The notes: a model not told the origin generated them from the letters alone. A stretch of 64,000 nucleotides of DNA from Candidatus Altimarinota bacterium (GCA_046314355.1 JBKBWQ010000001.1:224001-288000); one strand, 5' to 3'; numbered from the stretch's first letter, positions 16,602-34,369 are shown. Numbers and translations: made by a program.

Positions 16602-19004
16602 TTAATAATTATTTGGATGAGTCGTATGATAGACAACATATGCCATATCACCTCTCGTTATTGGCTCAGCAGCTAGTGAAACTCCATAGGGAAGTATCTG
16701 TAAGGAAGTTGCTTTATCCATATAGGGTATAAACCAATCCACATGATACGGGAGATTCTCTGTTTTCCATACATCTATTTTTTGGGTTTTCATAAGCATT
16801 TTGAGTGCCTCAGCAAGCCTAATGGAAGCGTGAGGTTTAAAGGTATTATCAGGATATCCCTGGATGATTCCTTTATCAACTGCATAGAGGACATACGGAA
16901 GGTACCATGAATTTTCTTCAAGATCTGAGAGTTTATTCCCGGATGCAGTAAATATATGTCCATTAGCTACACTCGCCTTATATTTATTTAGTTCTGTTTT
17001 CTCAATATCATCATCCATACTTTCCAGTAGTATTTTGAGAAACTCTGCACGGGTAATCTCTTGAGTTGGTCTAAAGGTTTTATCGGAGAAACCTTTTATA
17101 ATTCCTTCATCTTTCAGCGCAGAAATTTCGGACTCATATTTATAATTGGACGTATCTATAAATGAGCTATTTTCAAGTGCAGTGAGTTGATAAAGCTCAG
17201 TTCTTCCAGGCTTGTCAAACTCTATAGATGAAAGAAATTTCTTTATGAAAGGAAAATATTCATTGTATTTTTCACTTTTTGCATCAAAGCGGATCTCATA
17301 GTAGTGTGCTCCATCCGGAATATATACATCAAGAAAGATATGCGGCACTGAGGACGCCGTAGATCCTGGAAGAGGAGGCAGCTCTATACGTGAAAGGATA
17401 AAATATGCTTTTTTTCCGCCGATAAAGAGATCATTACCGCTTGCCATGACGATGCTATAGCTTTTAGCACTCTCTAACTGCGCTTTGTAGAATTCCTTTA
17501 ACTCAGGATCTGTCTCGTTATCATAAGCCTCATAATAATTCATGGAAATATGAGACTCAAGATCAGTCTTATGTTCAAGCCATACATTAAAGGCAGGAGC
17601 TTTGGCTAAATAATGAGACTCAACCATATGCCACACGCTGCTTGTGTTTTTTACAGTTACATGAGGAACATCTGATCGTATGATAGATGCTGTAAAATTC
17701 GGCTTTACTTCCAGATCTAATGTGAAGCTAGCAATCATATTTTTGATCTTATTCTGTTCTTCAGGCGACTTACTGTTTGACTGTGTAAAAAGCTGTATTG
17801 TTGCAGTGCCATGTGGGATGAGATATTCTTCATAGTTAAGCGTATTATTTGGATCTCCAAAGTAATCACTATCTTTATAAGTAACTTTTACTGCAGGATA
17901 TTTTCCGTTGAGAGTCACGATCTCTCTTGAAAATCCTTTATAGTCTGATAGATAAGGACGATTGAGTTCATCGAATTTCTTTATATCTTCCACTGAACGG
18001 TCAAATGCTTCCTTCACATATGAGAGTGTCACATATGAAAATCCCTTTGTTGGAAGAATACTGACACTTCTTTTTCCTAGTTCCACCGCTACTCCTTTAT
18101 CTCCAAAAAGATCATCAAGGGCATTGAAAAACTTCCATCCCTCGCTCGCAGTAATTGTATAGCGAAAATTGCTATTATCCATAGTGTAGACTTTGCTCTT
18201 ATTTGCAGCATCAAATTGTTTTAGCACATTTTTGAGTTCATTCTCTGCTGAGATATTTACATGTACATTTGTACTCTGAATATTTTTTTCTATCCAGCTT
18301 TCGTAGTTTGCAATGGGTAAAAAGTATCCAAGAGTCTCTCCTGAAGACCATCCTGTTCGTCCAGCAGAGGGAATACCAATGAACACTCCTGTTGAATTCA
18401 CGGCAGTACCTCCTGAGTTTCCGTTTGAGATTTTTGCATCAGACTTTATAAGCTCAACTCCCTCAGTATTAAGATAGCCGCTTACCTGTCCGCTAGTATA
18501 TGTAATAGATGTACCACCTATATCAGGGTAGCCTATAGTTGTGACCAGATCTCCAACAGTAGGTTTTATCGCTCCTTTATAGCTGAGAAAATTAAAATTT
18601 GGAATAGTATTTCCATATATATCTTGTGAACTAATCTTCAGTACGGCGATATCGTCATCCTTATTACCTCCCACATAAGATGCCGTTGAAAGACATTTTG
18701 GAATCTGTACATCAGTTTTAAATGTATAGCATATCTCAAAAATATCATTAATTTTTTCTTCAGATGTGCTTAGATCTCCAGCTACATGGTAATTTGTAAC
18801 GAGGTATCCATCAGCAGTAATAATTGTTGCTGAACCTGCACCACTCGGGATCAGATCATTATCCTTTGTGAGAGTATACGAAATCACCTTAACCGTAGGA
18901 ATCTGATCCGAAGATCCTATCTCAAAAACTGTTGTATCAGCAGCTTGGGCTGAAACAATAGAGAAGCCTGCTAGTACTATTCCTGTAAAAAATAATGAGC
19001 GCAT
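16602..19004 (-). CDS. Secreted trypsin-like (S1) serine protease with C-terminal SLH domains
   Basis: Signal peptide ending AQA; triad TNYHVA / DDIAVL / GNSGG; SLH repeats GFSDKTFRPTQEITRAE and GYPDNTFKP. Confidence 0.88.
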   Translation of the reverse strand: MRSLFFTGIVLAGFSIVSAQAADTTVFEIGSSDQIPTVKVISYTLTKDNDLIPSGAGSATIITADGYLVTNYHVAGDLSTSEEKINDIFEICYTFKTDVQIPKCLSTASYVGGNKDDDIAVLKISSQDIYGNTIPNFNFLSYKGAIKPTVGDLVTTIGYPDIGGTSITYTSGQVSGYLNTEGVELIKSDAKISNGNSGGTAVNSTGVFIGIPSAGRTGWSSGETLGYFLPIANYESWIEKNIQSTNVHVNISAENELKNVLKQFDAANKSKVYTMDNSNFRYTITASEGWKFFNALDDLFGDKGVAVELGKRSVSILPTKGFSYVTLSYVKEAFDRSVEDIKKFDELNRPYLSDYKGFSREIVTLNGKYPAVKVTYKDSDYFGDPNNTLNYEEYLIPHGTATIQLFTQSNSKSPEEQNKIKNMIASFTLDLEVKPNFTASIIRSDVPHVTVKNTSSVWHMVESHYLAKAPAFNVWLEHKTDLESHISMNYYEAYDNETDPELKEFYKAQLESAKSYSIVMASGNDLFIGGKKAYFILSRIELPPLPGSTASSVPHIFLDVYIPDGAHYYEIRFDAKSEKYNEYFPFIKKFLSSIEFDKPGRTELYQLTALENSSFIDTSNYKYESEISALKDEGIIKGFSDKTFRPTQEITRAEFLKILLESMDDDIEKTELNKYKASVANGHIFTASGNKLSDLEENSWYLPYVLYAVDKGIIQGYPDNTFKPHASIRLAEALKMLMKTQKIDVWKTENLPYHVDWFIPYMDKATSLQILPYGVSLAAEPITRGDMAYVVYHTTHPNNY

Positions 19005-19109
19005 TGAAAATGATGACTAATATGAAATATAGTGTCGGTAGTTTTTACATACTTTATAGAAAGCTCTATTGAAAGTAAAAAGAAAAGCTACTTTCTTAAC
19101 TGTTCTGAA

Positions 19110-20087
19110 TTAATCAGTTTTCACAAAAGCGAATTGTCCGTGATGACCGCTTACCTGCTGATTGAAGAGCTCAAGATCATGCATTTTAAAATAACTGATC
19201 ATTGTAGGGATATGATAGGTTCTAATTTCAAGAAATTTAATCTGCTCAGGAGGTAGAAGATGTATACGCTCTCCTCTATAACTGATAACGGTAGGGGAAA
19301 GTATTTCTACAGAGTACTGAAAACATAAGACCCCGATTGACCCTTCTAGTTCTGCTTTCAATACAATTTTAGTATCATCTCTTGGAATACCTAAGCGGTA
19401 AACTGCATCAGATAAACACTCCATGCGGGACTCATTTTTAAGCATTTGTGAGTAAGCATTGAAGATCATCAAATCATCTTTTTTATCGAGAGTAGGGCGG
19501 GTCATGATATCAAGGCAGATAATATCATCTTTTTCAAGAAGATTATAAAGTGTATCAACAATTTCAGTTTGAGAGACGTTACCTAAAGTACTACCGATAA
19601 GTAGAAAGATGACTTGATCAAATTTTTCTGTCTCTAAACGCTTTTTTAGTTCAAAATGAAATTCTGCTGCTGAGAAATCTGCACAGAAAAAGGAGCCGTT
19701 AATATCAGCCTGTATAAATTTTTCTTCTGCCGCATCTAACATTTCCTTTGAAGAATCAATACCAAAGAACTTATATTGAGTATGGTCTTTCACTTTCTTC
19801 ATCAGCATTGCTTCTATTGTAGCCTGTCCACATCCGAGACTTACAAATGCTATTTTATTATTTTTCTGTGGTATAAGAGAAATAATAAAGTCCACCATTT
19901 GCTCCTGTGTAAGTCTATTTTTCCAATAATCAGTAGTTGCAATCTGAGAAGTCGGTGTTGAGTTATAGTATTTGTTTGCGTTATCTCCCAGATAAATAAA
20001 TTTTTGTTCTATCTCTCGTCTTTTCACATTTCTAAGAAATTCTTTTTCTAACTCAAGATCAGACGTAAGGGTCAGTATAGTTGACAT
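19110..20087 (-). CDS. Class I SAM-dependent methyltransferase, EgtD/Methyltransf_33-like
   Basis: EQKFIY, VSLGCG, GIDSSKEML, CADF, IGSTLGN (compare EgtD FLGSTIGN). Confidence 0.75.
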   Translation of the reverse strand: MSTILTLTSDLELEKEFLRNVKRREIEQKFIYLGDNANKYYNSTPTSQIATTDYWKNRLTQEQMVDFIISLIPQKNNKIAFVSLGCGQATIEAMLMKKVKDHTQYKFFGIDSSKEMLDAAEEKFIQADINGSFFCADFSAAEFHFELKKRLETEKFDQVIFLLIGSTLGNVSQTEIVDTLYNLLEKDDIICLDIMTRPTLDKKDDLMIFNAYSQMLKNESRMECLSDAVYRLGIPRDDTKIVLKAELEGSIGVLCFQYSVEILSPTVISYRGERIHLLPPEQIKFLEIRTYHIPTMISYFKMHDLELFNQQVSGHHGQFAFVKTD

Positions 20088-20089
20088 AA

Positions 20090-20971
20090 TTATGATTGTT
20101 TAAAAGTATGAATCTTAAGTTTTGTATTTTTTTGATGAATAAGCAGACCTTTTTTAAAGTAAAATGAAGCTGAAAAATGATTGTCACGCAGGTTAAGAGA
20201 AATAGTTTCTGTATTTATATTAAAATCCTCTGAGTTAATAAGTGTTTCATATAAAGTATAGTCTTCGATTTCCCATATAATGTTACTGGAATCGTTATAT
20301 ATAAGCCCGTATAACTGCTGTTCGAGTTTATCAAAGTATGTTTCAAAGAGAGCATTCTTAAATGCTTCAGGTGTTGAAATATTCTTGGATGTAAGAAAAT
20401 TATGCAGAGATGTACTCATTTCTTTTATAGAATCCGTGCTGTCAAAGTTTGTAATATCGCGCATCGGCTTATATATAGCCTGCGTCTCAAAGGCCATTCT
20501 AATCTGTTTATGACTCTGCAGGTGCTTAAGAGTAGAGAGATTATGATCTCTATCAGCAATTTTTACTAGTAATGCCCGGATATCTTTCATACCTGCCCAA
20601 AGCTGTCTTTCAATTTTATCTTCAAAATACTCTTTAGGATAAAGATAGAAAGACTTTTCATCCTTTGATGCAGCATCAACAATAAATCCCACATTCTCCC
20701 CAAAGTCTTTATAAATTTGTTCCATAGTTACTTCTTCTACATCTTCCACCGTATCATGGAGCATTCCTCCGATTGCTAGATCTAGGTCATGAAATTTTTC
20801 CCAAAGGACTCGTGATACATCTATCACATGTATAACGTATGGATCTCCGGATTTTCGCATCTGTCCTTCATGAGCTTTCTTTGCAAACTCTAAAGCATGG
20901 ATCAGAGAACGTTTTTCCTCTGGAGCAGCGTGTTCGATTGCCAGCAGAAAATTTTTTTCTTCAAGAAGCAT
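20090..20971 (-). CDS. Stand-alone RelA/SpoT-type HD hydrolase (small alarmone hydrolase-like) with an unknown C-terminal extension
   Basis: HEGQMRKSGDPYVIH, LHDTVED, VKIADRDHNL, AFETQAIY. Confidence 0.85.
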   Translation of the reverse strand: MLLEEKNFLLAIEHAAPEEKRSLIHALEFAKKAHEGQMRKSGDPYVIHVIDVSRVLWEKFHDLDLAIGGMLHDTVEDVEEVTMEQIYKDFGENVGFIVDAASKDEKSFYLYPKEYFEDKIERQLWAGMKDIRALLVKIADRDHNLSTLKHLQSHKQIRMAFETQAIYKPMRDITNFDSTDSIKEMSTSLHNFLTSKNISTPEAFKNALFETYFDKLEQQLYGLIYNDSSNIIWEIEDYTLYETLINSEDFNINTETISLNLRDNHFSASFYFKKGLLIHQKNTKLKIHTFKQS

Positions 20972-21091
20972 AGGAATGAGATTAGATACTGTTTATTTTA
21001 TAGAAAAATATCTCTATTGTCGAGAAGCTATTGTGAAAATGAAAAGATTTACTATAATTTAGATTATCCTATAATCAATTCCATATAGCTG

Positions 21092-23008
21092 ATGATGATC
21101 GTGGAAGCGAAGATAGATTATAATAAAACATTTGAAGAGATTGTCGAAAGACTACTGGAAGCTCTGGCTTATCTTGACGCGCAGGATATACAAGTTGTAA
21201 AAAAGGCAGTAGAAATAGCAAAAGAAGCACATTCTACTCAGGAACGTATGTCTGGTGAGCCTTATATATTTCACCCAATTCGTGTTGCTCTCATCATGAG
21301 CGAATATAAGCTGCCTGCAGTATGTATCATTGCGGGGCTTCTTCATGATACTATTGAAGACGGAGGGTTAACTGAAGATTATTTAGCTGAGCAGTTTTCA
21401 AATGAATGTGCCGAACTTGTGGATGGAGTGACAAAATTTGCTAAGGATAAATTCCGTGAAGCGGAGACTAAAGACAGACAGATTGAATCTATACGAAAAA
21501 TGTTTGAGGTTATGCAGCATAATATTAAGATACCTATTATTAAGCTCTATGACCGTCTTGATAATGCAAGATCCTTTGATATCTTCAGAGAAGATAAAAG
21601 AATCAGACTAGCACAAGAAACTCTACATATTCATGTAAAGCTTGCGGAAGCTTTACTAGTCATACCTATAGCAGAAGAACTTAAAAAGATTTGTTTTGGT
21701 ATTTTATATCCGAAGGAAACACAAATATACCTGACGAATGTAGAATTACGCAAGAAAGCTCTACAGGATACTTGTGATTATCTTCACAAAGAGTTTCCAA
21801 ATTTCAAATTTAAAGTGGATTCAGATCTCTTTGCTGGTGCTTTGATAAACAATAGCGAATCTGTATCATGCGCCCGGGTAAAGGATCTTTTTATATCATG
21901 TATTACATCTACAGAGAAAGAAGCATATCAGATGCTTGATCTTCTACATAAAAATTTTGAATCGTTAAGTATTGTTGAGGATTCATTGTCCAGTCAGATG
22001 AATCAAAAAAAAGAGATTATTACAAAAATTTCTGGAAACGTATTTAAACCATGTTTTATACATATTACAACTGAAGATCTTTATACTCACAATCGTTTAG
22101 GGATTGTTCATGGGATAGCAAAAAATCAGAATTCACTGGTCGATCATGAAACTAAACAATGGATTCCAAATCTAGACCATTTATGCGAATTGAATCAGGA
22201 AAATAGTGAAATCTTCTGGAATGAACTTCATGCTTCGATTCTTTCAAATAATATTACTGTATTTATAGGAAGTAATGAAAGCCATTATGTTGTTACTGGA
22301 AGCAATGTACTTGAGACATTACTGCTTACTCATACTCAAGATATATTTTCCATATCTCATATTTGTATAAATGATAAAACCGGAGCATTCAATACACCCG
22401 TTTCGTCAAAGGATCATATTACTTTTGAAAGAGGAGAGACTTCACTTCTCCATCCTGAGGACGTAATGGGCATTAAAACTTCTCTTGGGCGAAAACTATT
22501 TTATCAGCAGATAAGCGATAGAAAGGAAACTGATAAAATTATATGGGGAAGTGTTATGCTGCGCAGTATATTTATATATGAGTCACTCAGTTCCGAAGAG
22601 AGAGCTTTTCAGAATTGGATAGAAGGATTGATGCTTCATTTTTCAGTATTAGATGTAGCAGAACTATATGAGAAAATTTTTAAAAATACGAAGTATTACG
22701 ATATATTAGTTAAAACGGCCTATGACTACAGACCGGAGATTAATGCGGATGATTATATTTTACTCTGTAGAGTTGATAACAAAGAAAAAGCACTAAGAAC
22801 CGCTGAAAGTATCGATAAATATTATAAACAGCATAGTGCAAGTGTGGAAAAAGTACGTTATCACACTATAGAAAACGGGATTGTAATAGAATTTACAGTG
22901 AATAAGCATCAGACATATACATATGGAGCATTAATTAAGCTACTATTTAGATTTGATCTTGTTGAGTTTTCTTTAGCGCCTTCTTCTTCTGTTTCTTTGC
23001 TAGAATAA
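21092..23008 (+). CDS. Long RelA/SpoT homologue: intact HD hydrolase, degenerate synthetase, degenerate TGS/AH/ACT regions
   Basis: HSTQERMSGEPYIFHP, LLHDTIED, LVDGVTK, KLYDRLDN; synthetase EIQIRT replaced by FIHITT; KTSLGR AH-like motif. Confidence 0.85.
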   Translation: MMIVEAKIDYNKTFEEIVERLLEALAYLDAQDIQVVKKAVEIAKEAHSTQERMSGEPYIFHPIRVALIMSEYKLPAVCIIAGLLHDTIEDGGLTEDYLAEQFSNECAELVDGVTKFAKDKFREAETKDRQIESIRKMFEVMQHNIKIPIIKLYDRLDNARSFDIFREDKRIRLAQETLHIHVKLAEALLVIPIAEELKKICFGILYPKETQIYLTNVELRKKALQDTCDYLHKEFPNFKFKVDSDLFAGALINNSESVSCARVKDLFISCITSTEKEAYQMLDLLHKNFESLSIVEDSLSSQMNQKKEIITKISGNVFKPCFIHITTEDLYTHNRLGIVHGIAKNQNSLVDHETKQWIPNLDHLCELNQENSEIFWNELHASILSNNITVFIGSNESHYVVTGSNVLETLLLTHTQDIFSISHICINDKTGAFNTPVSSKDHITFERGETSLLHPEDVMGIKTSLGRKLFYQQISDRKETDKIIWGSVMLRSIFIYESLSSEERAFQNWIEGLMLHFSVLDVAELYEKIFKNTKYYDILVKTAYDYRPEINADDYILLCRVDNKEKALRTAESIDKYYKQHSASVEKVRYHTIENGIVIEFTVNKHQTYTYGALIKLLFRFDLVEFSLAPSSSVSLLE

Positions 23009-24191
23009 CCGGATTTGTATATTCAGGAATGCTCAGACCGTATTTTTCCCATGTTTTTAACTCAATTTGTTTAAGCATGTGTAAATAATGCTCAAATTGT
23101 ACAGATTTTACATGAGAAATTTTTTTGTTAAATATCTGTAAACTTTCTATAAATACTTTGGATAGAAGCATCTTTTCATTCAGAAAATCTCTATCCGAAA
23201 TAAATAACAAAATCAATTTCAGAAGCTGTCTATATTTATAAATTTTGGAATTTCTTTCCGAACCTTCTATGTTATCCTGCTCTTCCTTTGTTCTTAGCTG
23301 AAAATCTATCACCGCAGGATAATATTTAGTACTATTGAATTCCTTCAATGTGTACTCTTTCATTGTAACAAAAAAATCAAGTGACTTGTAAAAGCCACGG
23401 CTATTTCTCGAATTTCTAATTCCGTTCACTGGATCCACATTAGGATCATTAATATCCCATACATGACTCATAAGAGGGATCTGAACAAAAGGGGAGTCCG
23501 GATCATTTAAAAGTAATTCAAGTAGCGTATTAATATCATTGCTTTTTTGAGGTTTAACTCTTAGTCCAAATAAGTCCGCACAAAGAAAAAACGGTTTCCT
23601 TTCAAGTAATCTGTTAATAAACATAGAACTAGGAGTTTTAACACGTCTTTCTATTTGATAGCTACCTTCAAGGCTTTTACTATGTTTTACTAGGAAAGAT
23701 TTCAACTTCGTATCAAACTCATTAAGAATCAATTCTGCACCATATTCAAATTCTCTCATTAATTGAGTAATAGATTCGGTTTTTGAATCAAGTAGAATTG
23801 TATCTAAATCATATATAGAAGGGAGTTTTGAAAAACAATTATAAAAATCCATTTCGGATGTTGAATAGGTATCTTTCTCATCCATCACGTGAATAGTTTT
23901 TGCAAGGTTAACTGTATCTTCGGGAAGATCAACAATAATTTTACTGCTAAATTCATCAATAAAATTATCAATCGGTCTTGAAAGAATGAGGTCATCATCT
24001 CTATAATCTTCATTTACATCTAAAATACCAAATTGGTAAATAGGACCATAAATATTATTTATTGCCGAGAGTATAAAATCTTTATACTTAGTTATCATCT
24101 CTGCCTCTTCTTTACTGGGTTCCTGTTCTTCAGTAAAGGCATAGAAGATTTTATTAAACTCTTCTAGCGCCCATTCTTCATTTCCTGCCAT
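22947..24191 (-). CDS. Divergent small alarmone synthetase (RelA/SpoT nucleotidyltransferase domain) with N-terminal extension
   Basis: RRVKTPSS, DLFGLRV, GFYKSL, DFQLRT and YKY in the canonical order of the synthetase motifs. Confidence 0.75.
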   Translation of the reverse strand: MAGNEEWALEEFNKIFYAFTEEQEPSKEEAEMITKYKDFILSAINNIYGPIYQFGILDVNEDYRDDDLILSRPIDNFIDEFSSKIIVDLPEDTVNLAKTIHVMDEKDTYSTSEMDFYNCFSKLPSIYDLDTILLDSKTESITQLMREFEYGAELILNEFDTKLKSFLVKHSKSLEGSYQIERRVKTPSSMFINRLLERKPFFLCADLFGLRVKPQKSNDINTLLELLLNDPDSPFVQIPLMSHVWDINDPNVDPVNGIRNSRNSRGFYKSLDFFVTMKEYTLKEFNSTKYYPAVIDFQLRTKEEQDNIEGSERNSKIYKYRQLLKLILLFISDRDFLNEKMLLSKVFIESLQIFNKKISHVKSVQFEHYLHMLKQIELKTWEKYGLSIPEYTNPVILAKKQKKKALKKTQQDQI

Positions 24192-24209
24192 TCACGATTG
24201 AATTAAGGT

Positions 24210-24494
24210 TTAGTGATTCTGCAACAGTTCATGTACAAGTGTCAATACTCTATCTGCATAATTAGCGCAATTCACTGGGATTTTATGTGTGCTAATTGCA
24301 AAAGAAAGGGCTTTCTTTACTTCCTTCACATCATTTTTTTCAATAATATTCTCTTCTAACAATGAATCTACAGTTAATTTTACTGTCGAACTAACATGTG
24401 CTTTCCATGCTTCTACACTTGTTAAACCTAAAACATGATTAATGTTTTTCTGTCCCCTGTCAAAACTGTTAAATCCTTCCCGACTTATTTTCAT
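24210..24494 (-). CDS. Small hypothetical protein upstream of the synthetase gene
   Basis: 94-aa ATG ORF ending 18 bp before the synthetase start, same strand. Confidence 0.6.
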   Translation of the reverse strand: MKISREGFNSFDRGQKNINHVLGLTSVEAWKAHVSSTVKLTVDSLLEENIIEKNDVKEVKKALSFAISTHKIPVNCANYADRVLTLVHELLQNH

Positions 24495-24629
24495 AGCACA
24501 AATGGATAATTTTTTTATACAATTTACTATTGCTTAGAGTTTGACGTATTTATAAACATTTGTCAATGATTCTACCTAGTACTTTTTACAAACTGAAGCA
24601 AAGTATATTGCTTATGATATATGATTATC

Positions 24630-24706
24630 TGGAGCGAATGACGGGGGTCGAACCCGCAACCTTTGCCTTGGCAAGGCAACGTTCTAGCCAATTGAACTAC
24701 ATCCGC
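24630..24706 (-). tRNA. tRNA-Gly (GCC)
   Basis: Reverse complement GCGGATGTAGTTCAATTGGCTAGAACGTTGCCTTGCCAAGGCAAAGGTTGCGGGTTCGACCCCCGTCATTCGCTCCA; cloverleaf with encoded CCA. Confidence 0.97.
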
Positions 24707-24721
24707 ATTTATTTCCAAGAT

Positions 24722-24749
24722 ATTCTAGCAAAAATACACATATACGCAA
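24722..24749 (-). promoter_or_regulatory. Putative sigma70 promoter of tRNA-Gly
   Basis: TTGCGT-16-TAGAAT with TG extended -10 on the minus strand. Confidence 0.5.
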
Positions 24750-24820
24750 GAAAAAGTAATAGGAAGTAACAAGTAATTTATAATTAGATAATTATTTTAA
24801 GGTAACTATCTCGTGGTTAT

Positions 24821-26536
24821 TTAGCTTACCGTTAAATCTTCTACTTTTTTATTTGTGAGCCAAGTCTGATATTGTTTCTCCATCAGCTGTTTATCAGCAC
24901 TAGTATGAGTTGGGATCAGTTCATACTCAAAGACAGTAGTAAATTTTGTTGTGTTACTATGAATATTACCTTCACTTTTCGTTCCTGTAAGTGGATATTT
25001 ATATTTTTCTTTTAAATACAAAGTTGCCAAGTATTCTTTACTGTATCTAGATGGTGGTTTCCCCTGACGTTTATCTGTCATATTTTTGATTTGATCCTCG
25101 TTGGCATCATAAACAGCAGTAAGCATTTTTCTATATACTTTGTCAGCCTGAAACTTTGGCCACTTCGCGAGTGTCTTTTTTTCCTCTGGAGTAAAAAGAG
25201 TGTTCGCATTTATATCCACATCATTGGTTTGCTCATTGAGAGTTGTATTTGCCATGAGTTTACCAACTGTGATCTGCTGATAGACTATATTCGTAAGTTT
25301 ATTTTCAGCTTCGTTTAAGTTGAGCACTTTTTCAAAGTGATACACGGGATTGAAATTTTCAAGCTGCTCGACAGCATCATGATCAATATTTTTACTTGTA
25401 TCAGCCATACCTTTCATTTGTTCCAGCATAGGGTTTACTGTACCTTTAAATAACCCTACTAAACCTTTCTCACCATTTGTAGTGAGAAGTGCAATACTGT
25501 CCCACAAGGTAAATTGCCTTAGTCCCTTCATAAGAGTACTATTTTTTATACTGTCCGGAAGAATAAGTGAGATCAGTGAGATAATAACAGCAAGCATTCT
25601 TGCAGGATTTTGTACAAGCATGCTGAAATGATTTAACCCATTATTTACTGTGCGGTATCCTAAAGTACCCGCTACGGCAACCGTACGTTCAAGAGCATTT
25701 TTACCGTTTAGGCTTGCTGGATCTATCTTAAAGTTCTGTACTATTTTCTGACTGTATGTTCCAAGTTCACTACTAGTTGCTAAAGTTACATTTTTGCTGT
25801 CATGAGCTATTTTATATTGGGCAAGAATCTTATCAAGTTCGTATTTTTTAGTATTAATAATGTCAGTTCTTTCTTTAGAATTATTTGGATTGTTTTGAGT
25901 CTGTACACCAAAGCTGCGTATTCCTTCTATTGCGTGGAGTACTTGTTTTTCATAGATCGTAGGTTCTGGTTTACGTTTGATCGCAATTTCTACATCATTT
26001 AATTTGAGCTCTGCTCCAGAGTTGACTCCTTTAAAATCTAGACTGGGAACTGTAGAGAATACAGTAGTAGAGTGATTACCGTCAGAATAGAGCAGGTTAT
26101 TGAGCATAGCAGCTTCAAGCTGAGTCGAGACATGTTCTTTTTTTAGATTTGTCTCCTGTGATATGTCTCGTCGTTTCTCAACGGGTATACCCTGTAGTTC
26201 CTTTGAAACTACATAAGAATTGCTGTAGAGCTTAGTAAGAGTAGCCTGGAGTCTATCTGCAAGTGCTTTAGGAAGAATTTTTTCAGGTACGGAATCTGTG
26301 GCGATTTCGTAGCCGAAGAATTTGCGTTTGATCAGAATATTATGGCGGTTGAGTTCTCGTATATAGTTTTCCAGATGTCTTACCTGATCAGGATACTCTC
26401 TTGCTGCAGTATAGTTATTCGCGAGAGCTTCAAATCTGCTTATATCTATAGCCTTCATAGTATCAAAAGACCTTTCACTGGAAGATGGAAGGACAGGTGC
26501 TTCAACTGTTTTTGTTTCTATTTTATTAGAACTCAT
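24821..26536 (-). CDS. Large hypothetical protein with a central hydrophobic segment
   Basis: 571-aa ORF; TM-like MLAVIISLISLILP. Confidence 0.8.
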   Translation of the reverse strand: MSSNKIETKTVEAPVLPSSSERSFDTMKAIDISRFEALANNYTAAREYPDQVRHLENYIRELNRHNILIKRKFFGYEIATDSVPEKILPKALADRLQATLTKLYSNSYVVSKELQGIPVEKRRDISQETNLKKEHVSTQLEAAMLNNLLYSDGNHSTTVFSTVPSLDFKGVNSGAELKLNDVEIAIKRKPEPTIYEKQVLHAIEGIRSFGVQTQNNPNNSKERTDIINTKKYELDKILAQYKIAHDSKNVTLATSSELGTYSQKIVQNFKIDPASLNGKNALERTVAVAGTLGYRTVNNGLNHFSMLVQNPARMLAVIISLISLILPDSIKNSTLMKGLRQFTLWDSIALLTTNGEKGLVGLFKGTVNPMLEQMKGMADTSKNIDHDAVEQLENFNPVYHFEKVLNLNEAENKLTNIVYQQITVGKLMANTTLNEQTNDVDINANTLFTPEEKKTLAKWPKFQADKVYRKMLTAVYDANEDQIKNMTDKRQGKPPSRYSKEYLATLYLKEKYKYPLTGTKSEGNIHSNTTKFTTVFEYELIPTHTSADKQLMEKQYQTWLTNKKVEDLTVS

Positions 26537-26541
26537 AAAAA

Positions 26542-26838
26542 TTATTTAGGCAGAGTAGTTAATTCTACGATAAGCTCTTCCATTGCTTCAGTGATCTTTT
26601 GATCTCTTTCCGTGTTTTCACTTAAGAGAGAGAGGGCTTTAAACATATCCATGTCATCCATATTCTCGTTGGAAAGTGCCTCCATTTCCTCATCTGAAAG
26701 GGAAGAGAGGATGACACTAAGTACCCGCTGCTCAACAATAGGAGCAATTTTTTCTTTATACTGTGCTTTCTTCTCGTCATCGAGATTGAGTTCCAGACGG
26801 GCGATAATCTCTGCGAGTACGAGGTCGATAATGTCCAT
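26542..26838 (-). CDS. Small acidic helical protein (resembles CPR DUF5663-type proteins)
   Basis: 98 aa, D/E-rich; pattern LNLDDEKK..IVEQRVLSVILSSLSDEE. Confidence 0.7.
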   Translation of the reverse strand: MDIIDLVLAEIIARLELNLDDEKKAQYKEKIAPIVEQRVLSVILSSLSDEEMEALSNENMDDMDMFKALSLLSENTERDQKITEAMEELIVELTTLPK

Positions 26839-26877
26839 GAAGTTGAAGTTGAGAAATAGAGAAAGGTAGAAATAATT

Positions 26878-29643
26878 TTAAGTAGCGGGATCTGTTGTTG
26901 GATCTGGCGTGGTTGTGGGTTTCTTTCTAAATAAGCCTGTTACGCCATCGTAAGTCCATTTACCTGGATAGCGCATCCAAAGGTATAAGGCAGGAGCAGC
27001 GACAAAGGCTGCAATTTTTGCAGGCTTGCTTGTAGCATGCTTTTTTATACTTCCAAAGAAGCCTTTTGTGCTCTTCCAGAATTCACTAGAAGATTTTTGA
27101 TTCTTTTTATAAAGATACGTACCAATAGCTACTGAGATACCAAGGAAGGTAAGAAGTGCTACAAGATTTTCGCGATCATTCTTGAGTGCACTTATCATGC
27201 CGCTTACTTCACTTGCGGCAGCGCCATCAAAGGCGTCACCTCCGCCTGAAGCCATTATACCTGAGAGAATTTTACGTGTATAGATATCTACTTCAAAATC
27301 AGTTAGTGAGTTTGGAAATCCAATAATATCCCAGATATGTCCCTGGAGCCGTACAAATTTCTCTAAAGGCTCTGTAAGTCCTAGGTAGAGAGTATCCTTT
27401 GCTACATCTGTAGTACCTGCGATAGTTTTGACAATCATACCATAACCTTTGTTTGTGGCATTGTTATAGAGGTACCAGTCATCAAAGGCCATGCTGTTCT
27501 CAAAATCAATACCTAATAGTGGGTGTGTACCAAAACCATTGAACCAGTTATTTGGTCCTCCCCATTTACCATCTGCTGTATGCAGTGCAAACTTTCTAAG
27601 CCCTGTGACCGTACTCCAAGGTCCTGTTGGTCCTTCCTTCACTAATACTCCGAGACTTTCTTTAGCCTGCTCTTTTGCAAGCTCTGCAGCAAGCTCAGTT
27701 TTTTCAGCTGGAGTCATTGTATTATACAAATCCTGAAGCTTTGCTTTACCCTCCGCGATGTCTGCAGCAGTTAATGTACGGTTTTCGTATTCTTTCAGGA
27801 TCGCGTTTACTGCATTCATATTCTGAGGTAGTTTTCCTGTCACAACATCTGTGAGATCTGGAGCTCCTCCAAGCGCAGGATCGAGCTTAGGTGCTATTGG
27901 TGTATTATTCACTGAAGATACTTTATCCTCTACAGCAGCTTTGAATACTCCGCTGTCTGTATGAGTATCAGTAGTCTGAGAGAGTGTGGAAGTAACTGGT
28001 TGATGAGCGACTGATCCAACATCCGTTTTTAAAGGCTGAACAATAGCTTTTACGTGATCTCCTGTATATTCTTTTACCGCCCACATACCTAAATGACCTG
28101 CCATATATCCAGTCCCAAATAAGAGGGAGGAAGTTGCAAGGGATTTTGTAACATGCCATCTTCTATCCTTATCTTCTACCTGCTTAAAGTCTACTTTATC
28201 AATGAGGTTCTGATCAACAAGCTCACTATCTTTACTGATATGATCAATATTTGCAGAGAGCAGCTCTGTTCTTTCTTTTGCTGTTTTTGCAAAGCTTAAG
28301 ATTGTCTTTTTCTCTGGAGAGGTCTTTTTGCTTTTTTCATAAATTCTTTTAAATACAGTATTTTTTAACTCTCCAACGTAGCCAAGATATACCGGATTGA
28401 TATGTTTACTAGTATCATTTATCATAATCTGCTGCCACTCAGAAATAGCACTATATATGATATGAAGATCTTTAACTGAAAGTTTACTCTCAATTAAAGT
28501 CTTTATTTCTTCCGGTGAAATAGGATTCTTTAAGAGATCCTTCAATTTTGCAGCTTTTTTTGCATCTTCTGCACGGTTTTCAGGTGTACTGTTTGTAGTC
28601 GCACGTTCTGCGTATGCTTTTGAGAGAGATAATACTATTTGTCTATTAAAGTATGTTGGAGTTCTATTTGCTGCTTCTTGTTTTCCCCAGCCTCTTACAA
28701 GAGATGCTGTAGCAGTAATTGCAAGTAATGCACCTGGAACTATGGCGATTGGTGCAACCGTACTTACAAGCACCTTTGCTGCAATACCAGCTGCAATGTA
28801 TCCGCCGTTCTTAGCGAGGTTCTTTAACTGCAGTTTTCTACTTGCGATAAGGGTACCTTTTTTGTTGATTCGGTGATTCTGATGATGCTCTACCTGAGTC
28901 ATACTATTCAAAATCATATACTGACTTGAGTATGTAGAAAAGAGTAGGTTCTGATCTAACAGATCAATATCAGTAGGTTCTTCCTTTGAAGTACTCTTCA
29001 GATGTCCCATAGCTATCCTTCCAAAGAGTTCTCTCACTGAAGTCTTATCATTGAAATCTTTATAAAGACTTTCATCTATCTTTTTTTCAAGGATATACCT
29101 TATGAGCGCAAAATATTCAGGTGTCGTAGTATCTTTTGCCTCTAGCTTTTCTTTGAGATTTTCATGAATCTCTTTTGCCTCCGGAGTATCTAACGCCTTT
29201 GCAGCTTCAGGCAGTACACCAAGTGTCTTTTTTGCCGAAGCTTCAAGTTTATCATTCTGGTCCTTTAAGAGTTTATTTACATGTTTTTTACTAAAAGTAT
29301 TTACTGCATTATAGTAGATACTTTTTGCTATTCTCTTTGCTCCTGTGCTATTTTCCAGGCGTATTTTCAAAGATTCTTTATTTGCTTCATCAACTTTCAA
29401 TGCATTTTTAGCATTCTCGACGCTAGTTTTCTGTTTTTTTACCTTCTCTTCAAAATTATCACTCATGTCTAAGTCTTCGTCTTCATCGTCGCTCACTTCC
29501 TCATTAATTTCTTCATCATCAAAATTATCCTCATCAAAAGTATCATCAGGAATCTCCTCATCTTCTTTTAGAGGAATGTCTAGAAGCTTTTCATCAAGCT
29601 CCACATCTGCTGTATTGTTTATTGTATTTAGTTTGCTAGGCAT
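26878..29643 (-). CDS. Large hypothetical membrane protein (about 921 aa; likely start MPSKL at 29643)
   Basis: Acidic N-terminus, Gly/Ala-rich hydrophobic hairpin, further TM segments. Confidence 0.8.
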   Translation of the reverse strand: MPSKLNTINNTADVELDEKLLDIPLKEDEEIPDDTFDEDNFDDEEINEEVSDDEDEDLDMSDNFEEKVKKQKTSVENAKNALKVDEANKESLKIRLENSTGAKRIAKSIYYNAVNTFSKKHVNKLLKDQNDKLEASAKKTLGVLPEAAKALDTPEAKEIHENLKEKLEAKDTTTPEYFALIRYILEKKIDESLYKDFNDKTSVRELFGRIAMGHLKSTSKEEPTDIDLLDQNLLFSTYSSQYMILNSMTQVEHHQNHRINKKGTLIASRKLQLKNLAKNGGYIAAGIAAKVLVSTVAPIAIVPGALLAITATASLVRGWGKQEAANRTPTYFNRQIVLSLSKAYAERATTNSTPENRAEDAKKAAKLKDLLKNPISPEEIKTLIESKLSVKDLHIIYSAISEWQQIMINDTSKHINPVYLGYVGELKNTVFKRIYEKSKKTSPEKKTILSFAKTAKERTELLSANIDHISKDSELVDQNLIDKVDFKQVEDKDRRWHVTKSLATSSLLFGTGYMAGHLGMWAVKEYTGDHVKAIVQPLKTDVGSVAHQPVTSTLSQTTDTHTDSGVFKAAVEDKVSSVNNTPIAPKLDPALGGAPDLTDVVTGKLPQNMNAVNAILKEYENRTLTAADIAEGKAKLQDLYNTMTPAEKTELAAELAKEQAKESLGVLVKEGPTGPWSTVTGLRKFALHTADGKWGGPNNWFNGFGTHPLLGIDFENSMAFDDWYLYNNATNKGYGMIVKTIAGTTDVAKDTLYLGLTEPLEKFVRLQGHIWDIIGFPNSLTDFEVDIYTRKILSGIMASGGGDAFDGAAASEVSGMISALKNDRENLVALLTFLGISVAIGTYLYKKNQKSSSEFWKSTKGFFGSIKKHATSKPAKIAAFVAAPALYLWMRYPGKWTYDGVTGLFRKKPTTTPDPTTDPAT

Positions 29644-29743
29644 ACCAGAGAAATATAGTGATATCAAAGTAGTATAACACACTACGCCTTCTTTGAGCAA
29701 TCGGTGGACTTGAAGGAAGGGAGGAATTATGTTCTCGGGAAAA

Positions 29744-29779
29744 CAAAAAAACCTCCTGGAATTCCAGGAGGTTTTTTTG
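29744..29779. terminator. Perfect 36-bp palindrome, bidirectional intrinsic terminator
   Basis: CAAAAAAACCTCCTGGAATTCCAGGAGGTTTTTTTG immediately after the stop of the 1368-aa gene. Confidence 0.85.
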
Positions 29780-29783
29780 AACC

Positions 29784-32700
29784 TTATGCAGGTACTGACC
29801 GCAGTCCTTGTGCTATTGCTGCATCGTTTGCATCCTTATAAGCATTTCTTGCTGTAGTTTCGTCTGTAATTAATGCTGCATTTGTCGGATCCATACTAAG
29901 TGCTCTACGCTTTTCTCTAAGATCCTTGCGTGCTACATCTCTTCTCTGAAGAGCAATCTTTTTGTCATAGTCATATCTCATGTACCGGTATCCAGCTTTT
30001 GAACCTCGGTATAGTTTTGGTATTGCCCATATTGCGACTCCAAGTGCCACTATAGTTATTGCTATATTAGCAGCTAATTTTGCATTTGGAGATGTACTGA
30101 GATAAGTATCCATCATCTTTGCCTGTCTTTTGATCCATTCAATATATTCATGTTTTTTAGGATCCCAGTTGAAGTCCTGCATTTCACGTTCTGAGAGTGT
30201 CAATGTCGCGCCATTTTCTCCATAAAAAATGTTATTTGTAGGAGTATCAATGAGTGCCTTTGTAAAGTCAGCCTTCAATCTTGGATCAGCCATGATTTCT
30301 TTCAATGAATAATCTCCAATACGTACATTTCCTATCTCTATTGCATCCTGAGGACTAAATGCTGTAGTGAACTTTGACCCCTGACTTTTTACCTTATTAA
30401 TATATGTATCAAGATATTCCACCATTGCATCTGCTTTTGCTCCTGGAGTAGGGTAGATAGCATCTGGGAAGTAGCTATTGATCATTGAGTTTACCATCTT
30501 CTGTCCATCGGTTGTATTATCGAGGCTATCAAGAAGTGTCTTAGGATCAACTACGATATCTCTTGAGTTACCACGAGTATCTATAAAGTATGGCTGATCA
30601 GTAGTATTATTTACTCCTCCACCATCGATAGGAGAATGATTTGCACTGCTTCCACCAGAGATATTTGTATTATTTACTCCTGAAGCGTTCTTATAAAGTT
30701 CCGCAAGCGGATCAAACGTAGACTGTACTGGTCTTGGCGCATATGGAAGACTTCTTTCTAATGTCTTATCAGCATTTGTCGTAATTCTTGAATCAAGATT
30801 TGGTACCTTTGCTGTAATGTTCTTAGATGTCGCTTGAAGATTTGCTGCCAGATTCTGGGACTTCACTGCAAGCGCCTGCTGGTAGTTGAATGCCGCAAGT
30901 TTTGTATTATATGTAGCCTCAGCTGCTACCTCTTCTCTATACTGTCTCTCAAGATTTCGTACATACTCTGTAAGCTGTCTCTTATTTGTCTCCGCTATAG
31001 CTATATCATCCTGTACACTTATAATCTTATCCTGGATTCGGAGTTTTTCAGCAAGGATTGTATCTCTATAAAGATTTACATTCTCAACTGTTGGAGGATC
31101 AAAGTCAATGAATGACTTTTGAGTTTCACGTCCGATACCCTTTGAGTAATCTTCTTTGATAAGATTTGAAAGCTTTTCCTGATATGCATTCAAGAGTAGT
31201 TTCTTAGCCTCTGGAGATGGATCTGCCTCAAGTGGAGCCACATATCGGTTAAAGAGATATTCAGAGTTGCCTTTGAAGTCCTCTTCAAGTCCCACCATTG
31301 AATTTGCATAGTCACTGAATTTTTCAGTGGGATAGCCCTTAGAGATGAGATAAGCATTATATGAACCTGTATTGTTTCTTACCGGATCCTCTGAACCATA
31401 GCTTCCAAACAAAGCTCCTACTTTGTCAGCTCTCGCCTGAAGACCTTCATAGAATGTGCCAGCTGTCTGTAATGTATCTGGAGATACATGCATATGCTGA
31501 TACCTTTCAAGCTCAAGTTTTGCAGAAGCAATCGCAGCCTTTGTAGCCTGAGGATTACCGAGTCTTGCTCTCATCTCATTCAGCTCATTGTAAAGCTTAA
31601 GGACATGCTCTTTCTGCGCAGCTGCTACTGTTGTGTAATCAATATCTGTTGCATTGTTTCCTTCTACTCCATTTACTGGCATTGCATTCTCATTGGTTGT
31701 AGTGAGAACGCTATTCTGCTTGCGTGTAAGTAATGCTTGTTCCCCTTCTGTTATCTCGCCTTTTGTACCGCTATATTTTGTACCGTGCTCTACTGGTTCG
31801 TCAGAGATACCCATAGCTCCATGGAAAAGCTCTTCATTAGTATATTCTGGCGGACATACTATAATTCTTTTTCCATTCTGGAAGAAAGTTGAAGCTTGTC
31901 CTACATATGACTTCCACTCCTTTTCAGGTGTATGTTCATCAATAACATTGAGCTTTGTAAGTAAAGCTTTCATGCTTTGTGGATCACTGATAGTTTCCGC
32001 GCTTGCAAAATGTACTTCGATATTACTGTCAAATTCATTATTGAAATCTGCTACAGGGTATACTTTTACACCTCCTATATTCATCTTTAGATCCTTTGTA
32101 TTATTAGCGAGGTACTCAGCACTTACACTTAGATTAGCCTCCTCAGAAAATACTTTATATGGGATTCGTCCATCTGGCAGAGCCATAACAGGGTAATTTT
32201 TATTGCCATCATTCGCTTTTAAAAGCACATACTCTGTATTTCCGATTTTGATATGATCATCGATGTACTGCTCTGAGATCAGACCTGCAGTAGGTTTGAT
32301 ATCTACAATACCTGCAGACTGTCCGGCAGTTGGAGCAATAGAAGTGTGATTTACACTAGCTTTTGCTGCTGCCGCCTTCGCTATAGCGTTAGCCTTTACT
32401 GTCTCAAGAGAAGAGGTAGGTGTACCACTGACTTTTGGAGTAGAGAGTACATCATGTGCAGTCATCAGAAGACCTGCAGCTCCTGTACCTATAACAGCGC
32501 CAAGAATAGTTGCTTTCTTTAACCGTGTCTTATTCTCTGTATTAATTTTTTCTCTAATGCTGCTGCTTTCTTTACTAAGACTATTCTTCAGTTCTTCTGT
32601 CAGTATGCTGTTACTGCTTTCAAAATCTTTCTTAAGTGTATTGATATGTGCAAGAAAGGCTGTAAGTCCCATGATTCCTGCATCCTTGTCCTGACGTCCG

Positions 32701-33890: not shown

Positions 33891-33988
33891 ACCAATGAGA
33901 GTTAATGAAAATTGGTATGGCTACATTACATAATCATCAAAATTTGTCAATAATAAAATTGACGAATTGTAAATATGCCTGTGAATTA

Positions 33989-34354
33989 TTACTTCCTGTT
34001 TAAAAGTCTGCTAATTATATTAGTGGCAGCCTTATTATCTTTTGATGAAGAATGAGTACTTCTTAAGGTAAAAGCTTCCTGATAAATAGCAGATTTCAAT
34101 TCTTCATCTGATTCCTCATCGGCATCCATTGTCTTTAAAATATCTTTTTCATCAAATTCAAGGTACTCAAGGGCTTTATCTATTTCTTGAGTATCTTTTT
34201 CTAGAGCAGCTATTTGCTTCTCTTGCAGTGTAGTTAAAAAAGCAACATCTTCTATTGAGAGTACTCCTTTAGCAAAAATACGTTCTATATAGAGTTCCTC
34301 TGAAGATGTAGAGGCTATTGATTTGAAATAAGTAATGATATCTTGTGTAGTCAT
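33989..34354 (-). CDS. Small acidic hypothetical protein
   Basis: 121-aa ORF starting 15 bp after the 564-aa gene. Confidence 0.7.
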   Translation of the reverse strand: MTTQDIITYFKSIASTSSEELYIERIFAKGVLSIEDVAFLTTLQEKQIAALEKDTQEIDKALEYLEFDEKDILKTMDADEESDEELKSAIYQEAFTLRSTHSSSKDNKAATNIISRLLNRK

Positions 34355-34369
34355 ATTGTATTTTGATAA

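Follow-up and report, generated by a model that had tools for sequence, protein, structure and literature searches.

A Patescibacteria gene block of three RelA/SpoT homologs, with a predicted hydrolase-methyltransferase operon, a predicted hydrolase-only long homolog and a divergent predicted synthetase

A stretch of 64,000 nucleotides (nt) from the genome of a Candidatus Altimarinota bacterium (GCA_046314355.1, JBKBWQ010000001.1:224001-288000), referred to as the window, carries at 19110 to 24494 a block of five contiguous genes, MT325, HD293, RSH638, SYN414 and S94, three of which are members of the superfamily of RelA/SpoT homologs (RSHs). The block is probably an assembly of three side-by-side units of different age, namely the pair HD293-MT325, the long RSH gene RSH638, and the synthetase gene SYN414 with its small neighbor S94, within an alarmone network whose synthesis and hydrolysis lie on separate polypeptides. 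The window corresponds to G000:C1:224001-288000 of genome G000, which is 1.69 Mb in size, 98% complete and 38% in G+C content, and which splits its RSH functions over separate genes. Patescibacteria are host-dependent ultrasmall bacteria with tiny genomes, and one such genome here holds seven RSH genes. The new elements are a RelA/SpoT-like division of labor that appears to have arisen independently outside Proteobacteria, a conserved and sometimes multi-copy operon joining a Rel-derived predicted hydrolase to an EgtD-fold methyltransferase, and a divergent predicted synthetase family with three known members. Together they could widen the known RSH chemistry and help explain growth control in host-dependent ultrasmall bacteria.

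The genome census of RSH genes, made with PF04607 and HD_4 searches and local phmmer, found three of the seven genes in the window. Outside it lie a long Rel about 100 kb from RSH638 (G000:C1:349169-351163), RelA[hS]-like in that its synthetase is intact (PF04607, 125 bits) and its hydrolase motifs are degenerate, and three small HD_4 proteins of 280 amino acids (aa; G000:C1:323383-324225), 205 aa (G000:C1:1410886-1411503) and 215 aa (G000:C1:1451176-1451823). The genome total is five putative hydrolase genes and two synthetases. The long Rel contradicts the original prediction, made from the sequence of the window, that synthesis had moved to SYN414. The same prediction described the block itself correctly: the ORF listing and ARAGORN returned the five open reading frames (ORFs) in the order and on the strands given, with the adjacent tRNA-Gly(GCC); Pfam and NCBIfam matches gave three RSH-superfamily genes and a methyltransferase; and among the block proteins hydrolase motifs are kept in two, HD293 and RSH638, and synthetase motifs in SYN414 only.

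RSH638 (21092-23008, plus strand, 638 aa) matches HD_4 with an E-value of 3.5e-30 and 105 bits, and its alignment to TIGR00691 spoT_relA covers positions 1-518 of the 687-position profile, while the Pfam scan returned no PF04607 match. The hydrolase motifs Arg/His, His-Asp/Glu-Asp and Asp-Arg/Asn are present, and all four synthetase motifs are replaced. The TGS region is seen as a weak alignment within TIGR00691 and within the long-RSH alignment, and no Pfam TGS or ACT match was obtained. The long RSHs of 40 related genomes form two groups, of which g1 is the ordinary Rel of 630-790 aa and g2 comprises proteins of 917-1124 aa whose HD motifs are intact and whose synthetase motifs are degenerate. 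A tree of 37 rows places RSH638 inside g2 with Shimodaira-Hasegawa-like approximate likelihood-ratio test (SH-aLRT) supports of 97 and 95 and a branch length of 2.18, and it is 280-490 aa shorter than its clade-mates. By its motifs, RSH638 is a predicted hydrolase-only long RSH of the SpoT[Hs]-like kind, the natural counterpart of the hydrolase-dead Rel. The Rel orthologs of the family relatives G002 and G003 (loci L059 and L060) are also hydrolase-dead by motifs. Among genomes carrying g2, the g1 Rel is hydrolase-dead in G009 and G027 and mostly keeps the hydrolase motifs in G019 and G017.

The g2 genes are present in several families of the class, at loci L012-L018, L021, L061 and L063 (G019, G025, G039, G037, G027, G009, G040, G017). 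G039 has two of them back to back on opposite strands (L063).

Complete subfunctionalization into RelA[hS] and SpoT[Hs] is described for Moraxellaceae by Atkinson et al. 2011 (PMC3153485). As there, the present Rel has by its motifs a dead hydrolase and a live synthetase, RSH638 shows the reverse, and the hydrolase-only copy is fast-evolving and sits on a long branch. The present pair differs from that of Moraxellaceae by its occurrence in a class of Patescibacteria instead of Beta- or Gammaproteobacteria, by the length of RSH638 compared with the 917-1124 aa of its clade-mates, and by the location of the two genes some 100 kb from each other. It also differs in that the three family relatives searched keep the hydrolase-dead Rel, whereas no RSH638-type or other g2-type gene was found in them. 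On these motif patterns, the [hS]/[Hs] split appears to have arisen independently in this class.

HD293 (20090-20971, minus strand, 293 aa), the first gene of the HD293-MT325 operon, encodes a predicted HD hydrolase of the RSH type whose C-terminal part is vestigial. It matches HD_4 with an E-value of 6e-24 and 85 bits, above the cut-off of 27.2, and TIGR00691 with an E-value of 1.7e-36 over profile positions 1-144. All of its hydrolase motifs are intact in the motif table, and the catalytic columns are invariant across the 24 sequences of the family, in which H34, R39, H48, H72, D73, E76, D77, K137, D140, R141 and N144 never vary. The family profile finds RelSeq (1vj7) at an E-value of 7e-49 over chain residues 17-262 and Rel N-terminal halves at 1e-40 to 7e-49, compared with about 1e-16 to 1e-20 for small alarmone hydrolases (SAHs) of the Mesh1 type. 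Like the SAHs Mesh1 and PbcSpo/ATfaRel and like secondarily truncated long RSHs, HD293 is a stand-alone HD_4 protein with all catalytic residues; unlike a single-domain SAH, it is nearer to long RSHs, retains a linker and a synthetase stump, extends at its C-terminus by about 120 further aa, and belongs to a type whose gene nearly always precedes that of an EgtD-fold methyltransferase. HD293 is therefore read here as a probable truncated Rel, a hydrolase taken from the Rel N-terminal half with a remnant of the synthetase domain.

The second gene of the operon, MT325 (19110-20087, minus strand, 325 aa), encodes a predicted methyltransferase dependent on S-adenosylmethionine, with an EgtD fold. 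It matches PF10017 (Methyltransf_33) with an E-value of 5e-10 and 39.4 bits, above the cut-off of 23. The AlphaFold model, built on a 25-row alignment, has a predicted local distance difference test score (pLDDT) of 91.8, and Foldseek against the PDB gave EgtD in all matches listed to rank 15, with query-normalized TM-scores (TMq) of 0.69-0.76. The two-domain EgtD fold is shared over the full length (TM 0.73-0.77), the next folds reaching 0.50 at most. MT325 differs from EgtD by an identity of only 12-16%, by a TIGR03438 egtD score of 33.2 bits, far under the cut-off of 290.9 so that the equivalog level is not reached, and by its gene being paired with an RSH hydrolase gene. The search of the genome, which is 98% complete, found no EgtB (TIGR03440), and for this reason ergothioneine synthesis was rejected as a role for MT325. 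PADLOC returned a generic methyltransferase-domain match to mad2 (E 6e-9), and phage and plasmid records gave no match.

Among 400 genomes of the class, 25 contain relatives of MT325 (E-value of 1e-10 or lower), as does one of 400 genomes sampled across the phylum. By family, they occur in 3/3 genomes of f1, 11/64 of f11, 5/31 of f22 and 2/12 of f18, with one each in four more families. The 34 loci of these relatives, with contig G158:C1 left out, contain 40 methyltransferase ORFs, which were scored with profiles of both families. Directly upstream of 26 ORFs, on the same strand and within 48 nt or overlapping, lies an HD293-type gene of 286-356 aa, and one more ORF has such a gene across a 393-nt gap. 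Four ORFs are second copies in HD-MT-MT arrays, one shows the reversed gene order, one directly follows the gene of a long RSH of 644 aa, and seven are without a nearby HD gene. At least one pair is present in 22 of the 25 genomes, and in named genome records the 10 best full-length loci of the HD293 type all have the methyltransferase gene downstream. In the window the two genes are 2 nt apart. Enolase is found near the pair in both G000 and its family relative G001, an arrangement suggestive of vertical inheritance within the family. HD293-MT325 is a conserved, tightly coupled, old inherited two-gene operon of this class of Patescibacteria, a label that is reasonable given the titles of named records that carry the pair, Candidatus Peregrinibacteria, Peribacteria and Gracilibacteria. 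Unlike this pair, the block as a whole is not inherited together: neither SYN414 nor S94 turned up in the 40 relatives, nor SYN414 in the 400 class genomes.

A long Rel adjoins the pair at six loci in at least five genomes, the window not counted: L047, L049 (G017), L100 (G314), L103 (G229), L107 (G362) and L129. The Rel is divergent to the HD gene in four of the six, which is the same geometry as that of RSH638 and HD293, and the adjoining Rels are bifunctional by motifs. This repeated placement beside the long Rel of a genome points to a tie with alarmone metabolism. Instead, the HD protein could be a 2'/3'-phosphatase on a cofactor resembling NADPH or coenzyme A (CoA), with MT325 N-methylating an amino acid to a betaine, so that the pair would form a stress-metabolite module away from alarmones. 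Such a role would suit the EgtD fold over the full MT325, which retains the glycine/asparagine-containing motif conserved in the family, and the location of most pairs away from Rel; MESH1, moreover, is reported as an NADPH phosphatase in the available part of one preprint (bioRxiv 10.1101/2021.04.30.441581) and as a CoA 3'-phosphatase in that of another source (PMC13221220). It is nevertheless unlikely, as the HD293 family is far nearer to Rel hydrolase domains (E 7e-49) than to the Mesh1 type (about 1e-18), the six Rel-adjacent loci speak for alarmones, and the genome search did not find EgtB. For the operon itself, searches of the literature in main texts turned up no function. No published link between an SAH and an EgtD-like protein was found in main texts, although the supplementary subfamily and FlaGs tables of PMC7229694 may list these families; the word "methyltransferase" is absent from the main texts of PMC7229694 and PMC3153485.

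In places the HD-MT cassette is multi-copy (L110 on G264:C1, L045-L049 in G017, L052, L100, L107, L114). G264 has two tandem pairs and lone methyltransferase genes, G017 has three pairs and variants, and HD-MT-MT triads occur in G007, G314, G362 and G054. Such an expansion is unusual for genomes of 1-2 Mb. The full pair, at about 41-42% identity, also occurs on contigs from bins labeled "uncultured Methanosarcinales archaeon" or "uncultured Gammaproteobacteria bacterium" (L121, L122), and these contigs are likely mis-binned or mislabeled Patescibacteria. L151, from a bin titled Enterobacteriaceae, has an HD-containing ORF of 760 aa under translation table 11 or 1193 aa under table 25. TGA-interrupted genes are found in many genomes of the class of G000.

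SYN414 (22947-24191, minus strand, 414 aa) is a predicted and highly divergent synthetase of the RelA/SpoT type. Against PF04607 it scored an E-value of 0.0063 and 17.2 bits, below the cut-off of 27. An exhaustive phmmer search of 1.84 billion representatives returned only two relatives, P0002 (431 aa, 46% identity) and P0003 (297 aa, 32% identity), and word-indexed searches agree with a family of three members. P0002 also stays below the PF04607 cut-off with 18.6 bits, and P0003 passes it with 35.7 bits over positions 1-112 of 113. SYN414 was not found in the 40 relatives, three of them from the same family, and its profile returned no full-length relative in the 400 class genomes. Five weak partial matches were obtained there (E 6.6e-5 to 9.4e-4), at least three of which lie in frames of long-RSH size, 728-830 aa. 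Loci with a SYN414 relative were found neither in genome, metagenome or viral contig collections nor in phage records.

The family profile searched against the PDB gave nine sequences at an E-value of 10 or lower, eight of which are small alarmone synthetases. In the AlphaFold model of SYN414 the mean pLDDT is 52.5, and the core at about 150-300 reaches 75-91. Foldseek gave 38 PDB matches at an E-value of 0.001 or lower, and all matches listed are RSH proteins, the best being RelQ (5dec, E 3e-6, target-normalized TM-score TMt 0.61), with RelP, Rel N-terminal halves and CapRel also among them. The RSH nucleotidyltransferase fold, on which the original prediction depended, is thus present in SYN414 as modeled. 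By hhalign, the family aligns to the Rel of the class with an E-value of 1.5e-5 and a probability of 80%, and the residues invariant in the family, R183, K185, S189, D206, G209, R211, Y268, S270, Q298, R300 and T301, fall on invariant class-Rel columns. The invariant Rel motif columns were defined on alignment A4 as R239, K241, S245, D263, R268, Y307, S309, H311, E327, Q329 and T332. The stretch before the Tyr motif, with K296, D297, P302, K303 and N305 invariant in Rel, is replaced in SYN414 by a longer unrelated stretch with its own invariants, S242-D246, G257 and R259. By comparison with the RelSeq and RelP structures, the replaced stretch presumably contacts the acceptor nucleotide. The Asp and Tyr of SYN414 are equivalents of FaRel2 positions at which, according to the available part of bioRxiv 10.1101/2021.04.30.441581, substitutions inactivate the enzyme, with Mg2+ coordination and acceptor stacking lost. 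SYN414 appears to be a real although aberrant RSH synthetase under constraint.

The protein consists of the core (about 141-310), an acidic N-terminal part of about 140 aa and a basic helical C-terminal part of about 100 aa; its isoelectric point (pI) is 5.3 overall and 6.2 in the core. Residues 93-322 align by hhalign to Rel columns 137-353, the last HD helix included. As a lead only, the N-terminal part may be a decayed HD domain, for which the Atlas structure rows gave TM 0.42-0.46. The ESM Atlas also pointed from SYN414 to a cluster of 57 members, proteins of 375 aa that are most frequent in Peregrinibacteriota and of which 12% have PF04607, and both observations are unconfirmed leads. The tail of SYN414 is lysine-rich and is weakly conserved in P0002.

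SYN414 has the RSH synthetase fold in common with RelQ and RelP and with the toxic small alarmone synthetases (toxSAS) CapRel, FaRel and FaRel2, along with the motif residues Arg/Lys/Ser, Asp/Gly/Arg, Tyr/Ser and Gln/Arg/Thr, and, as in toxSAS loci, a small gene is its neighbor. It differs from all of them by staying below the Pfam threshold, by its extra N- and C-terminal parts, by the changes of His to Asp and Glu to Asp, by the rebuilt acceptor-side stretch and by having just three known members, and from toxSAS also by the lack of homology to known antitoxins at its locus.

The neighbor in question is S94 (24210-24494, minus strand, 94 aa), an orphan gene separated from the downstream SYN414 by 18 nt. 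With a codon score of 0.142, it exceeds both the 5th percentile of real-gene segments (0.093) and the 95th percentile of spurious ORFs (0.117), and its codon usage is gene-like by this measure. S94 had no match in Pfam, PADLOC or PHROGs and one weak match in NCBIfam, far under the cut-off. Its sole match among 5.8 billion proteins was itself, nothing fell below an E-value of 0.02 in the 40 relatives, and the ESM Atlas offered just sub-threshold helical-bundle look-alikes. A complex prediction of SYN414 (alignment A1) with S94 scored 0.00, which is evidence neither for nor against an interaction.

This arrangement raises the possibility of a toxin-antitoxin pair, in which SYN414 would be a toxSAS toxin that makes (pp)pApp or (p)ppGpp or pyrophosphorylates tRNA 3' ends, S94 a type II antitoxin and the HD hydrolases a type IV-like back-up, the whole being a defense or addiction module. 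The tight bicistron with a small upstream gene and an 18-nt gap fits such a module, as do the very sporadic distribution (three members among 1.84 billion representatives, none in the 400 class genomes) and the location of SYN414 at the lowest G+C of the region (0.31), at a break of synteny with the family relatives. In the available parts of the literature, the loci of known toxSAS are conserved and bicistronic and an HD-domain SAH neutralizes one of the families (PMC7229694), SAHs can reverse tRNA pyrophosphorylation, and the tRNA-targeting members have no clear sequence signature (bioRxiv 10.1101/2021.04.30.441581 for both). However, SYN414 did not place in a validated toxSAS subfamily (FaRel, FaRel2, PhRel, PhRel2 or CapRel): it gave no sequence match to solved toxSAS chains at an E-value of 10 or lower, and it reached CapRel by fold only, at ranks 22-23 and behind the housekeeping RelQ and RelP; SYN414, like S94, had no PADLOC or PHROGs match. 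S94 is without a homolog with which a conserved pairing could be seen, phage and viral collections held no relatives, and no mobile-element genes are nearby. Furthermore, the acidic SYN414 contrasts with the basic tRNA-binding patch of FaRel2 as given in the consulted part of the same preprint. A toxin-antitoxin role is possible but doubtful on this balance.

The closest solved sequences and folds, RelP and RelQ, are those of housekeeping enzymes, and SYN414 could alternatively be an ordinary RelP/RelQ-like small alarmone synthetase that supplies additional (p)ppGpp or pGpp in response to a particular stress, with S94 unrelated to it. The retained core catalytic motifs would agree with that role, and the many hydrolases of the genome could balance the extra synthesis. 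Housekeeping synthetases are usually conserved in a lineage, yet SYN414 is found in none of the three family relatives and none of the 400 class genomes; moreover, its pre-Tyr stretch is rebuilt and the His of its Tyr motif is changed to Asp. An ordinary housekeeping role is rather improbable.

The proposed network of separate polypeptides would work as follows. Rel would make (p)ppGpp, and RSH638, HD293 and the three further small hydrolases would remove the product of this hydrolase-dead Rel. SYN414 would be a rare extra pyrophosphokinase that retains its ATP- and Mg-binding residues and its acceptor-stacking Tyr but has a rebuilt acceptor side, so that it could transfer pyrophosphate from ATP to a 3'-OH acceptor that is not necessarily GDP or GTP. 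It would be co-transcribed with S94, a possible partner. The neighboring hydrolases could reverse its product, in view of the reversal of both alarmones and tRNA pyrophosphorylation by SAHs described in the available part of bioRxiv 10.1101/2021.04.30.441581.

Several points weigh against this network. RSH638 has a D in its third hydrolase motif where the other members have H, and its very long branch may make the placement in g2 an artifact. The model of SYN414 is poor outside about 150-300 and its alignment has three rows; the enzyme replaces H311 of Rel with D272 and E327, the catalytic-motif Glu, with D296, both Asp residues being invariant within the family, and it could be weak or inactive. 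SYN414 adjoins hydrolases in one genome only. A Rel adjoins the HD-MT pair in just five of the 34 loci and one named record, and the EgtD fold of MT325 suggests a substrate resembling an amino acid, for which no tie to alarmones is known. The enzymatic activities, the substrate of MT325 and the connection of SYN414 with the hydrolases are predictions made from gene content, motifs, folds, distribution and synteny.

A stronger version, put forward in the original prediction, takes all five genes as one co-evolved system in which the product of the synthetase, a non-canonical nucleotide, is broken down by both hydrolases and modified by the methyltransferase. The five genes are indeed contiguous with short gaps and share RSH ancestry, and the HD-MT pair sometimes adjoins a long RSH. 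On the other side, local phmmer found a SYN414 relative in none of the 34 HD-MT or methyltransferase-homolog loci, the 400 class genomes hold no full-length SYN414 relative, and the pairs of G001 and G003 have quite different HD-side neighbors. These distribution data bring the single-system view close to refutation, and it is very improbable. A looser scheme restricts the joint function to the pair: HD293-MT325 would be an unrecognized two-enzyme signaling or modification module of Peregrini-, Peri- and Gracilibacteria, its Rel-derived 3'-pyrophosphohydrolase and its EgtD-fold N-methyltransferase sharing one non-canonical substrate, such as a tRNA end or a 3'-(pyro)phosphorylated nucleotide that bears an aminoacyl group or an amine, with SYN414 as the matching writer of the pyrophosphate mark in this genome. 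If true, that module would add to RSH chemistry a branch outside (p)ppGpp and (pp)pApp; the scheme is speculative and quite unlikely.

HD293 and RSH638 start divergently 120 nt apart, and the 3' ends of RSH638 and SYN414 converge with a 62-nt overlap (22947-23008). The tRNA-Gly(GCC) gene (24630-24706, minus strand; ARAGORN, Rfam RF00005 with 67.5 bits), which shares its strand with S94, precedes that gene by 135 nt. The toxSAS FaRel2 selects tRNA-Gly and tRNA-Thr according to the available part of 10.1101/2024.07.05.602228, and the presence of a tRNA-Gly gene beside S94 is probably a coincidence. In G001 and G003, the HD-side neighbors of the pair are orthologs of G000 genes at about C1:1.157-1.164 Mb, which places RSH638, SYN414, S94, the tRNA and a run of Pfam-less genes at a break of synteny. 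The G+C content of the block is 0.31-0.35, compared with 0.36-0.42 in the flanks and 0.38 in C1. The lower G+C, the synteny break and the orphan ORFs beyond the tRNA fit an accessory segment such as the island suggested from the tRNA neighborhood, but the flanks do not support it, as no integrase, phage or plasmid gene was found in them.

The assembly was checked against a contig of 17,796 nt assembled separately from the reads of run X1, which is identical over 18000-26000; X1 is a possible source of the assembly, and the comparison is hence an assembly check and no second sample. X1 was the sole DNA run in which the stretch was found; no RNA run with it was listed, and run X3 of the same study yielded none of it. 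The Rfam scan of 18000-27000 returned no riboswitch, the tRNA being the sole entry above threshold, and PADLOC gave no match for any RSH gene. A promoter and terminator scan gave 32 promoter-like sites where 28.2 were expected and was uninformative. The convergent overlap of RSH638 and SYN414 makes antisense interference between their transcripts possible.

The left flank contains PheT, RuvC, enolase and a protease with SLH domains. The last is an 800-aa protein (16602-19004, minus strand) with a trypsin-like protease; it matches RT-Protease_XI of PADLOC with an E-value of 1.7e-15 in the protease portion only, and no reverse transcriptase is nearby. The right flank begins with six consecutive Pfam-less ORFs between tRNA-Gly and GAPDH (24821-36064, minus strand; 571, 98, 940, 1368, 121 and 564 aa). 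None of the six matched a Pfam family at an E-value of 0.001 or lower, and four (571, 98, 121 and 564 aa) had no PHROGs match. The proteins of this run are lineage-specific and possibly surface-located.

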